The notes below the pieces were generated by a model. That model saw only the letters and a list, made by a program, of their open reading frames with translations. It was not told where the DNA came from and did not search any database. From the IMG/VR virus record IMGVR_UViG_2660238061_000002: DNA of 10,033 nt; one strand, written 5' to 3'. Below are positions 4,341-4,796 of the stretch, piece after piece. Source of the DNA: a virus (taxonomy: Duplodnaviria; Heunggongvirae; Uroviricota; Caudoviricetes). The first letter of the stretch is position 1; each line of letters begins with the position of its first letter. Position numbers and translations under genes: made by a program.

Positions 4341-4796
4341 ATGGCTGAGACGTTAATCATGAAAATTCATACAACAGAAACAAGGACTGTATTGCGGCGC
4401 ACAGCCCGCCTGACTATTCCACAGATTGGCGAACAGGCAGCACAGGCATACGAGAGCATGCGTGCAGAGGCGAAAGCGCGTCAGCTTGTCATAAATGGGC
4501 CAGCGATTTTTGTTGCACGCTCAATGCCCAAGGACGCTCATACAGAATTTGAATTGGCCTTTTGTTTGCCTGTGGATGGCGATGATTTGCCAATACTGCC
4601 GGCTTTTCGCTGCGCTTGCTTCATGTTTGAAGGTTCGCTGGATAGATTGTTCTCCCACGGATACCAGAAATTGCTTTGCAGCATGGCGGATGTGGGACTC
4701 ACATTAAGCACTGAAAGTCGTGAGGTTTATCATGAGTGGCATGGACCTGAATCCGACAAGAATCGCATTGAAATCCAGATTGGTGTGATTGAATAA
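4341..4796 (+). CDS. Small soluble protein (151 aa) with a duplicated beta-alpha-beta-beta pattern resembling GyrI-like / AraC-effector-binding small-molecule-binding domains; function unknown
   Basis: ATG 4341 (alternative ATG 4359), 29 nt after the upstream stop on the same strand (operon-like); two half-repeats (ETRTVL…LVINGPAIFVARS…EFELAFCLPV and LPAFRCACFMFEGS…REVYHEW…NRIEIQIGV); assignment is by pattern recollection, not alignment. Confidence 0.4.
   Translation: MAETLIMKIHTTETRTVLRRTARLTIPQIGEQAAQAYESMRAEAKARQLVINGPAIFVARSMPKDAHTEFELAFCLPVDGDDLPILPAFRCACFMFEGSLDRLFSHGYQKLLCSMADVGLTLSTESREVYHEWHGPESDKNRIEIQIGVIE

Follow-up and report, generated by a model that had tools for sequence, protein, structure and literature searches.

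A GyrI-like protein encoded behind a CPBP intramembrane protease on an IS1-bounded segment: a candidate cytoplasmic binder of a toxic compound

The IS1-bounded passenger and its two genes

The window analysed in the present study, by which we mean the whole 10,033-base stretch of the IMG/VR virus record IMGVR_UViG_2660238061_000002, is not a single uninterrupted locus: it is pieced together from 17 short fragments with ten N at each junction, and the adjacency in any genome of features lying on opposite sides of an N-run is not assured. The gene of interest, which encodes a small GyrI-like protein, sits in the fragment 3230–5054, where it follows a gene for a CPBP intramembrane protease, the two genes together forming a passenger between two inverted ends of the insertion sequence IS1. 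The features of this fragment are:

3230–3485 (−): partial IS1 copy, InsA-proximal end, running leftward; cut by the N-run at 3220–3229, with its terminal inverted repeat ending at 3485 and abutting the passenger
3486–4995 (+): passenger of 1510 bp between the two inverted IS1 ends, CPBP protease gene then GyrI-like gene
3538–4311 (+): CPBP (Rce1-like/Abi) glutamic intramembrane protease, 257 amino acids, TTG start
4359–4796 (+): GyrI-like gene, 145 amino acids from the homology-supported start; maximal open reading frame from 4341, 151 amino acids
4719–4781 (+): family signature R127-E128-x-Y130 ... W133 ... N141-x-x-E144-x-Q146, codons 127–147
4996–5054 (+): second IS1 copy, same end, inverted orientation; cut by the N-run at 5055–5064

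The IS1 ends constitute a 59-nucleotide (nt) inverted repeat (3427–3485 versus 4996–5054, 97% complementary), and the IS1 parts match thousands of Escherichia coli sequences annotated as IS1 family transposase; an open reading frame at 3182–3430 (−) is presumably IS1 InsA. Positions 3460–5000 are 100% identical on the Salmonella IncFIA plasmids CP048302 and CP048300, and IS1 truncates the passenger in one Klebsiella plasmid and three E. coli records. Rfam and tRNA scans of 3230–5054 gave no match.

A preliminary description, made from the letters of the window and a list of its reading frames, had placed a 151-residue open reading frame at 4341–4796 (+). Such a frame is present exactly there, but the real gene is most likely shorter (4359–4796, 145 residues), because 12 of 12 aligned homologues begin at Met7 of the frame and the RefSeq coding sequence is 438 nt long. 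With this start the gene begins 47 nt past the CPBP stop codon. The corresponding RefSeq entry, WP_024195570.1, is already named ‘GyrI-like domain-containing protein’. Among 5.8 billion proteins the homologues fell into 18 clusters with 48–100% identity, and an exhaustive profile search returned 567 cluster representatives at E≤1e-3. Since these 18 clusters exist and the ratio of non-synonymous to synonymous substitution rates (dN/dS) against three homologues is 0.12–0.41, the frame is, as judged from sequence comparison, a real gene under purifying selection. Its product has neither a signal peptide nor a membrane segment, and a protein search of a phage collection found no homologue. Many of the distant relatives (E 1e-13 to 1e-20, 180–240 amino acids; P0045–P0159) begin with a signal-peptide or lipoprotein-like leader, such as MRQALTLIAAVLMMTGC, which points to a branch of this GyrI-like family that is secreted or periplasmic.

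That the neighbouring gene encodes a membrane protease, as the preliminary description had it, was confirmed, with the product matching the CPBP/Rce1-like family Pfam PF02517 (E 1.8e-9, 38.2 bits against a cut-off of 22.4). The TTG start lines up with the Met of its homologues and the motifs EExxxR (E153, E154, R158), FxxxH (F193, H197) and HxxxH (H242, H246) are all intact, the motif residues being invariant in 11 homologues and likewise in 39. The AlphaFold2 model is all-helical with seven long helices and a predicted local distance difference test (pLDDT) score of 95.3. A Foldseek search of the PDB with this model gave no significant match, a result that neither backs nor contradicts the Pfam call.

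The small protein has a GyrI-like fold

The GyrI-like fold proposed for the small protein was borne out by Pfam, by the family profile run against the PDB, by an AlphaFold2 model and by Foldseek; structure prediction and profile searches all gave a GyrI-like result, and none pointed with high confidence to a different fold. The match to Pfam PF06445 (E 1.6e-5, 25.6 bits) lies 0.4 bit below the curated cut-off of 26, and seven of 13 close homologues match the same family, the best with an E value of 1.8e-7. With the single protein, phmmer found no match among PDB sequences and the family profile was needed: the close-family profile retrieved Rho-tag (9RTM, 4e-6), CTR107 (6e-5) and EcmrR (2e-3). 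The AlphaFold2 model (pLDDT 89.4, predicted template modelling score 0.83) has the order β-β-α-β-β followed by β-α-β-β, and in a Foldseek search of the PDB the top 47 matches were all of the GyrI-like/SOUL superfamily. The best of these was CTR107, with a template modelling (TM) score of 0.85 and a root mean square deviation of 2.2 Å, followed by CtaZ, BrlR, SAV2435, EcmrR, STM3175, lin2189, BmrR, Rob and SbmC. The gene at 4359–4796 thus encodes a GyrI-like-fold protein, although the assignment is not new, as NCBI already gives the protein this name.

The two half-repeats on which the fold had originally been proposed are invisible in the single sequence: the halves share 6% identity, and a local alignment of the N-terminal with the C-terminal half scored 20, while shuffled sequences averaged 20.5 and 54% of them did at least as well. 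They are, however, supported by a profile–profile comparison of one half with the other in the 92-sequence family (probability 87.6%, E 3.5e-6, 65 columns), which is in register, strand on strand and helix on helix, and by the AlphaFold2 model. The family profile also aligns the C-terminal half of the query to the N-terminal half of CTR107. As modelled, the protein contains two tandem strand–helix–strand–strand (SHS2) units in one domain, as expected of a member of the GyrI-like superfamily.

Conserved residues and the predicted ligand site

Conservation was counted over 92 stand-alone family representatives, and residues are numbered according to the 151-residue frame. Conservation peaks at G53, P54, F57, F70, P77, V78, C91, G98 and Y108, and above all in the two C-terminal strands, where R127 is kept in 90 of 92 representatives and W133, N141 (85 of 90), E144 (77 of 90), Q146 (84 of 90) and G148 are further conserved positions. 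The preliminary description had left ligand-binding residues to be checked, and in this respect the Glu-x-Tyr motif is kept (E128 in 91 and Y130 in 88 of 92). The predicted ligand site lies on the strand pair 125–132 and 142–150 of the AlphaFold2 model. In the family profile E128 and Y130 align with E-I-Y of CTR107, and we take the position of E128 to be that of the buried ligand-contacting glutamate of BmrR (E253), CTR107 and SAV2435; PDB entries for BmrR E253 mutants are among the Foldseek matches.

The cyclopropanoid hydrolases YtkR7, C10R6 and lin2189 (PMC5684135) have the same fold, and the Glu-x-Tyr of the query corresponds to E185/Y187 of lin2189, in which E185 is the nucleophile and E157/E185 the catalytic glutamate pair (PMC5684135). 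By its secondary-structure position, E97 of the query is a possible equivalent of E157, the second catalytic acid. Twelve of 13 close homologues have this residue; of the 92 representatives, 22 carry E at the position, 15 carry K and 12 carry T. There is no support for placing the protein in the cyclopropanoid hydrolase subfamily.

The CPBP–GyrI-like pair across lineages

The order CPBP then GyrI-like, on the same strand, is kept in at least ten lineages, the gap after the CPBP stop codon usually being 29–57 nt. The pair spans alpha-, beta- and gammaproteobacteria, and the identities of its two members to those of the window co-vary, as follows (loci are designated L001 and so on):

Salmonella IncFIA plasmids (L001): CPBP 100%, GyrI-like 100%
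Salmonella chromosomal island (L041): CPBP 67%, GyrI-like 67%; divergent TetR regulator upstream
Tepidimonas (L005–L007) and a Rhodocyclaceae genome (L043): CPBP 55%, GyrI-like 59%
Microvirga (L016): CPBP 53%, GyrI-like 53%
Achromobacter (L008–L010, L018): CPBP 45%, GyrI-like 50%
Silanimonas and a Burkholderiaceae metagenome-assembled genome (L022–L023): CPBP 54–56%, GyrI-like 44%

The intact pair is also found on four metagenome contigs (L059, L060, L067 and L068). Seen from the CPBP side, a GyrI-like gene lies downstream at all inspected loci with at least 53% identity and at none with 42% or less. On this comparative evidence the CPBP protease is a genuine partner of the GyrI-like gene.

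A GNAT acetyltransferase gene follows directly 3′ of the GyrI-like gene in Tepidimonas, Rhodocyclaceae, Silanimonas, Caldimonas and Pseudomonas thermotolerans, but not in the enterobacterial copy, and it sometimes overlaps the GyrI-like stop codon. The loci concerned are:

L005: GNAT at 6435–6893
L043: GNAT at 5292–5750
L015: GNAT at 4435–4881
L022–L024, L038–L040, L059, L062 and L067: GNAT directly after the GyrI-like gene, which in L038–L040 is only a 35-codon remnant

No specific NCBIfam acetyltransferase equivalog was matched by the GNAT neighbour. The GNAT of Achromobacter was considered as a part of the module and rejected, being of a different type and non-adjacent, so that only the Tepidimonas-type GNAT counts toward it. 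The Rhodocyclaceae copy has an SRPBCC gene upstream in addition to its GNAT downstream, and an AraC regulator lies near the Tepidimonas copy.

The wider surroundings of individual copies are varied. On Salmonella p28945-1 (L001), an encapsulin gene (annotated ‘bacteriocin family protein’) and a Dyp-type peroxidase gene lie at 14770–16633, approx. 5 kb from the passenger. In Klebsiella pneumoniae pB18083_2 (L002, 7288–16918), the IS1-bracketed copy adjoins a second, unrelated CPBP fragment and also, across IS1, genes for HlyD and a peptidase-domain ATP-binding cassette (ABC) exporter, i.e. microcin-type export genes; as this adjacency lies across an IS1 copy, it may be accidental. The E. coli CT02 plasmid (L003) encodes, at 1580–5991, a C1 repressor, a terminase, a late promoter-activating protein and doc/phd, and since these are P1-type functions the E. 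coli plasmids with a protease-less copy are P1-like phage-plasmids. A homologue with 80% identity (L004, ERZ1032607 NODE_35, 1–12438) is located on an island with GIY-YIG, cpYpsA, DUF5710, AAA ATPase, DUF7281 and MksF genes, an island that may serve in defence or belong to a mobile element.

Other fragments of the window

The N-runs of the window are at 505, 962, 1653, 1858, 2150, 2463, 2667, 2899, 3220, 5055, 5365, 6626, 6867, 8266, 8873 and 10015. Several of the fragments that they separate resemble, on reading the translations by eye, nearly duplicated parts of the tail, Lom and tail-fibre genes of lambdoid prophages. The features read in this way, together with an RNA match, are:

2507–2675 (−): RtT RNA match (Rfam RF00391, 58.9 bits), overlapping a partial tRNA match and interrupted by an N-run; ARAGORN found no complete tRNA here
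5481–5984 (+) and 9464–10033 (−): tail-fibre C-termini, translations read by eye
6051–6743 (+) and 8865–9395 (−): Lom-like open reading frames, translations read by eye
6622–8229 (−): open reading frame of 535 amino acids in which YD-type repeats are abundant, Rhs-like by eye; N-runs break both ends

Proposed function and alternative explanations

By analogy with characterized relatives, we propose that the GyrI-like protein may be a cytoplasmic binder that neutralizes a toxic compound, encoded by the second gene of a mobile self-protection operon, and we give this proposal an even chance of being correct. The protein would act as a soluble stand-alone GyrI-like domain in which two SHS2 halves form one sheet with a cleft under two helices, and this cleft would bind a small molecule that is toxic and either hydrophobic or cationic, or possibly a peptide, via the buried Glu128 and Tyr130 together with Arg127, Asn141, Glu144 and Gln146. 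The compound would then be neutralized by sequestration, as in CtaZ, CTR107, SAV2435 and proteins of the STM3175/AlbA type. The PDB titles among the closest structures include closthioamide–CtaZ, rhodamine–CTR107, TPP–SAV2435 and the albicidin resistance protein STM3175, and there are antibiotic- and dye-binding precedents for GyrI-like relatives (PMC12814168; PMC5684135). Regulators of small-molecule responses (TetR and AraC) adjoin some copies, and the Rhodocyclaceae copy is flanked by SRPBCC and GNAT genes, a context that we count in favour of a binder, as we do the conserved E128-x-Y130. Because the GyrI-like gene is the second gene of a mobile operon, after a catalytically intact CPBP gene, the protease would probably be the membrane arm and the GyrI-like protein the cytoplasmic arm of one self-protection cassette, to which many betaproteobacterial copies would add the GNAT acetyltransferase as a third gene.

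The closest known systems compare with the query as follows. CTR107 of Chlorobium tepidum (5KAX, 3E0H and 2KCU) and its engineered derivative Rho-tag are, like the query, stand-alone single domains of approx. 150 residues, and CTR107 is the best match both by structure and by profile (E 4e-6 to 6e-5). It differs in having only 17–19% identity with the query, in lacking the context of R127, N141 and Q146, and in having Ile at the position of E97 of the close subfamily; we know of no CPBP partner of CTR107. CtaZ (7ZHD/7ZHE) and the STM3175/AlbA-type protein (7R3W) share only 14–19% identity with the query. STM3175 has an added DNA-binding domain, and CtaZ is encoded in an antibiotic biosynthetic cluster, whereas the query gene, found on plasmids and islands, adjoins a membrane protease gene and no biosynthetic genes. 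The C-terminal domains of EcmrR (6WL5), BmrR, BrlR and Rob are fused to helix-turn-helix domains and activate transcription, whereas the query has no other domain.

Several observations weigh against a binder that works together with the protease. In the clade with 80–87% identity, an intact GyrI-like frame lies just downstream of a 40–80-codon relic of the CPBP C-terminus (47–68% identity; L011, L012, L049, L050 and L055–L058), i.e. the protease has been lost repeatedly in this clade and the small gene retained. In the Klebsiella plasmid IS1 cuts the CPBP gene and the GyrI-like copy persists, and in the three E. coli records, of which two are plasmids and one a chromosome, little or nothing of the CPBP gene is left and IS1 is found upstream of the GyrI-like gene. 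The passenger is rare in E. coli, these being the only copies among 5426 complete genomes, none of the three having an intact protease. Because it remains intact after CPBP decay or IS1 deletion, the GyrI-like gene is not strictly dependent on the protease. Further away in the family, none of approx. 58 metagenome loci of homologues with 43% identity or less has a CPBP neighbour, and the homologues without CPBP have no common partner, their neighbours being heterogeneous (methyltransferase, AidB, YchF, MoaA, ABC exporter, major facilitator superfamily transporter, MarR, old yellow enzyme, alcohol dehydrogenase, Cas3 and YcaO). A scan of the passenger found no sigma-70-like promoter upstream of both genes, and the promoter/terminator scan gave only the promoter-like sites of IS1 itself, leaving expression from the passenger unproven. 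NCBIfam and PADLOC gave no function-assigning match for either the GyrI-like or the CPBP protein. Finally, the near-invariant polar residues R127, E128, N141, E144, Q146 and C91 are conserved beyond what is expected of a promiscuous multidrug binder, so the protein may have a specific ligand or be catalytic. The coupling to the adjacent protease put forward in the preliminary description therefore holds as a two-gene unit conserved across lineages, but not as a strict dependence, which the CPBP-less copies contradict.

In the coupled-sensing form of this idea, the GyrI-like protein would be a subunit of the CPBP protease that senses a ligand or presents substrates: upon binding a peptide or small molecule, it would dock on the cytoplasmic face of the protease and trigger or feed proteolysis. 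The strict operon order, short gaps and co-varying divergence over the three proteobacterial classes agree with such a subunit, as do the invariant catalytic motifs, which imply that proteolysis matters, and the classical role of GyrI-like domains as effector-binding modules of MerR and AraC regulators, of which EcmrR, BmrR, BrlR and Rob were matched. The persistence of an intact GyrI-like gene after CPBP decay or deletion in several lineages argues the other way, and no fusion of the two was found among the 150 best family representatives, the longer proteins bearing signal-peptide or lipoprotein-like leaders instead; we consider a dedicated subunit unlikely. If the excess conservation reflected catalysis, the protein could be a small GyrI-like hydrolase, or another catalyst, that inactivates the toxin in the manner of YtkR7 or of lin2189 with its buried glutamate pair. 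This fits poorly with the replacement of E97 across the wider family, with a length approx. 60 residues below that of lin2189 (145 versus 205 amino acids), with the aromatic cage of lin2189 (Y46, W85, W99, F154 and Y187), which is not alignable, and with the fact that the best matches (CTR107, EcmrR and CtaZ) are non-catalytic binders, lin2189 being 25th in the Foldseek results. A catalytic role accordingly seems to us distinctly unlikely.

The toxin might alternatively be a membrane-active peptide, a hydrophobic segment of which would be gripped by the cleft in the cytoplasm, with the Abi-type CPBP protein conferring immunity at the level of the membrane, in which case the pair would constitute a peptide-binding immunity system. 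Abi/CPBP proteins confer bacteriocin immunity, and papers found in the literature search associate CPBP proteins with it. The DUF5085 proteins ExiB and TipE have the GyrI-like fold (PMC12744356), and in the same work a protein of the GyrI-like superfamily neutralizes a glycine-zipper toxin in the cytoplasm, a separate family providing immunity elsewhere (PMC12744356). The plasmid fragment from Klebsiella with its adjoining microcin-type export genes could be read in the same direction, but that adjacency spans IS1 and is probably accidental; moreover, none of the loci examined has a conserved toxin or bacteriocin gene beside the pair, and the residues of the cleft signature (R, E, N, E and Q) are polar, not hydrophobic. 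Immunity to a peptide is thus improbable in our estimation. A last possibility is a role like that of SbmC/GyrI (1JYH), a gyrase binder that would shield the enzyme from microcin B17, CcdB or quinolones; fold and size are the same, but there is no detectable sequence relationship and the genomic context differs. In an hhalign comparison of the family alignment with E. coli K-12 SbmC the E value was 0.33 and the probability 0.2%, on which grounds orthology with SbmC was rejected; structural identity is 14%, with SbmC 31st in the Foldseek results, enterobacteria already have a chromosomal sbmC, and the gene shares its operon with a membrane protease gene and not with a DNA-related one. We regard this last role as very improbable indeed. 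Of the readings considered, a cytoplasmic binder of a toxic compound is the best supported.

Significance

With the fold already present in existing annotation, the novel point is only the conserved CPBP–GyrI-like(–GNAT) unit. In the library that was searched, we found no paper linking GyrI-like proteins with CPBP proteases, the one co-mention of GyrI-like and CAAX concerning an unrelated topic, and none mentioning WP_024195570.1. This unit travels among alpha-, beta- and gammaproteobacteria, and on conjugative plasmids in Salmonella, Klebsiella and E. coli it is IS1 that has captured it. As both protein families have independently been linked to antimicrobial protection, the cassette is a candidate for an unrecognized resistance or immunity determinant. 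More speculatively, and with considerable doubt on our part, CPBP, GyrI-like protein and, where present, GNAT may form an undescribed mobile three-layer cassette in which proteolysis at the membrane, sequestration in the cytoplasm and acetylation would act against one specific antimicrobial, and which would be reaching the Enterobacteriaceae on IncF and P1-like plasmids by IS1 capture. If this is true, the three-layer cassette would add a new determinant of resistance or immunity to those carried by plasmids.
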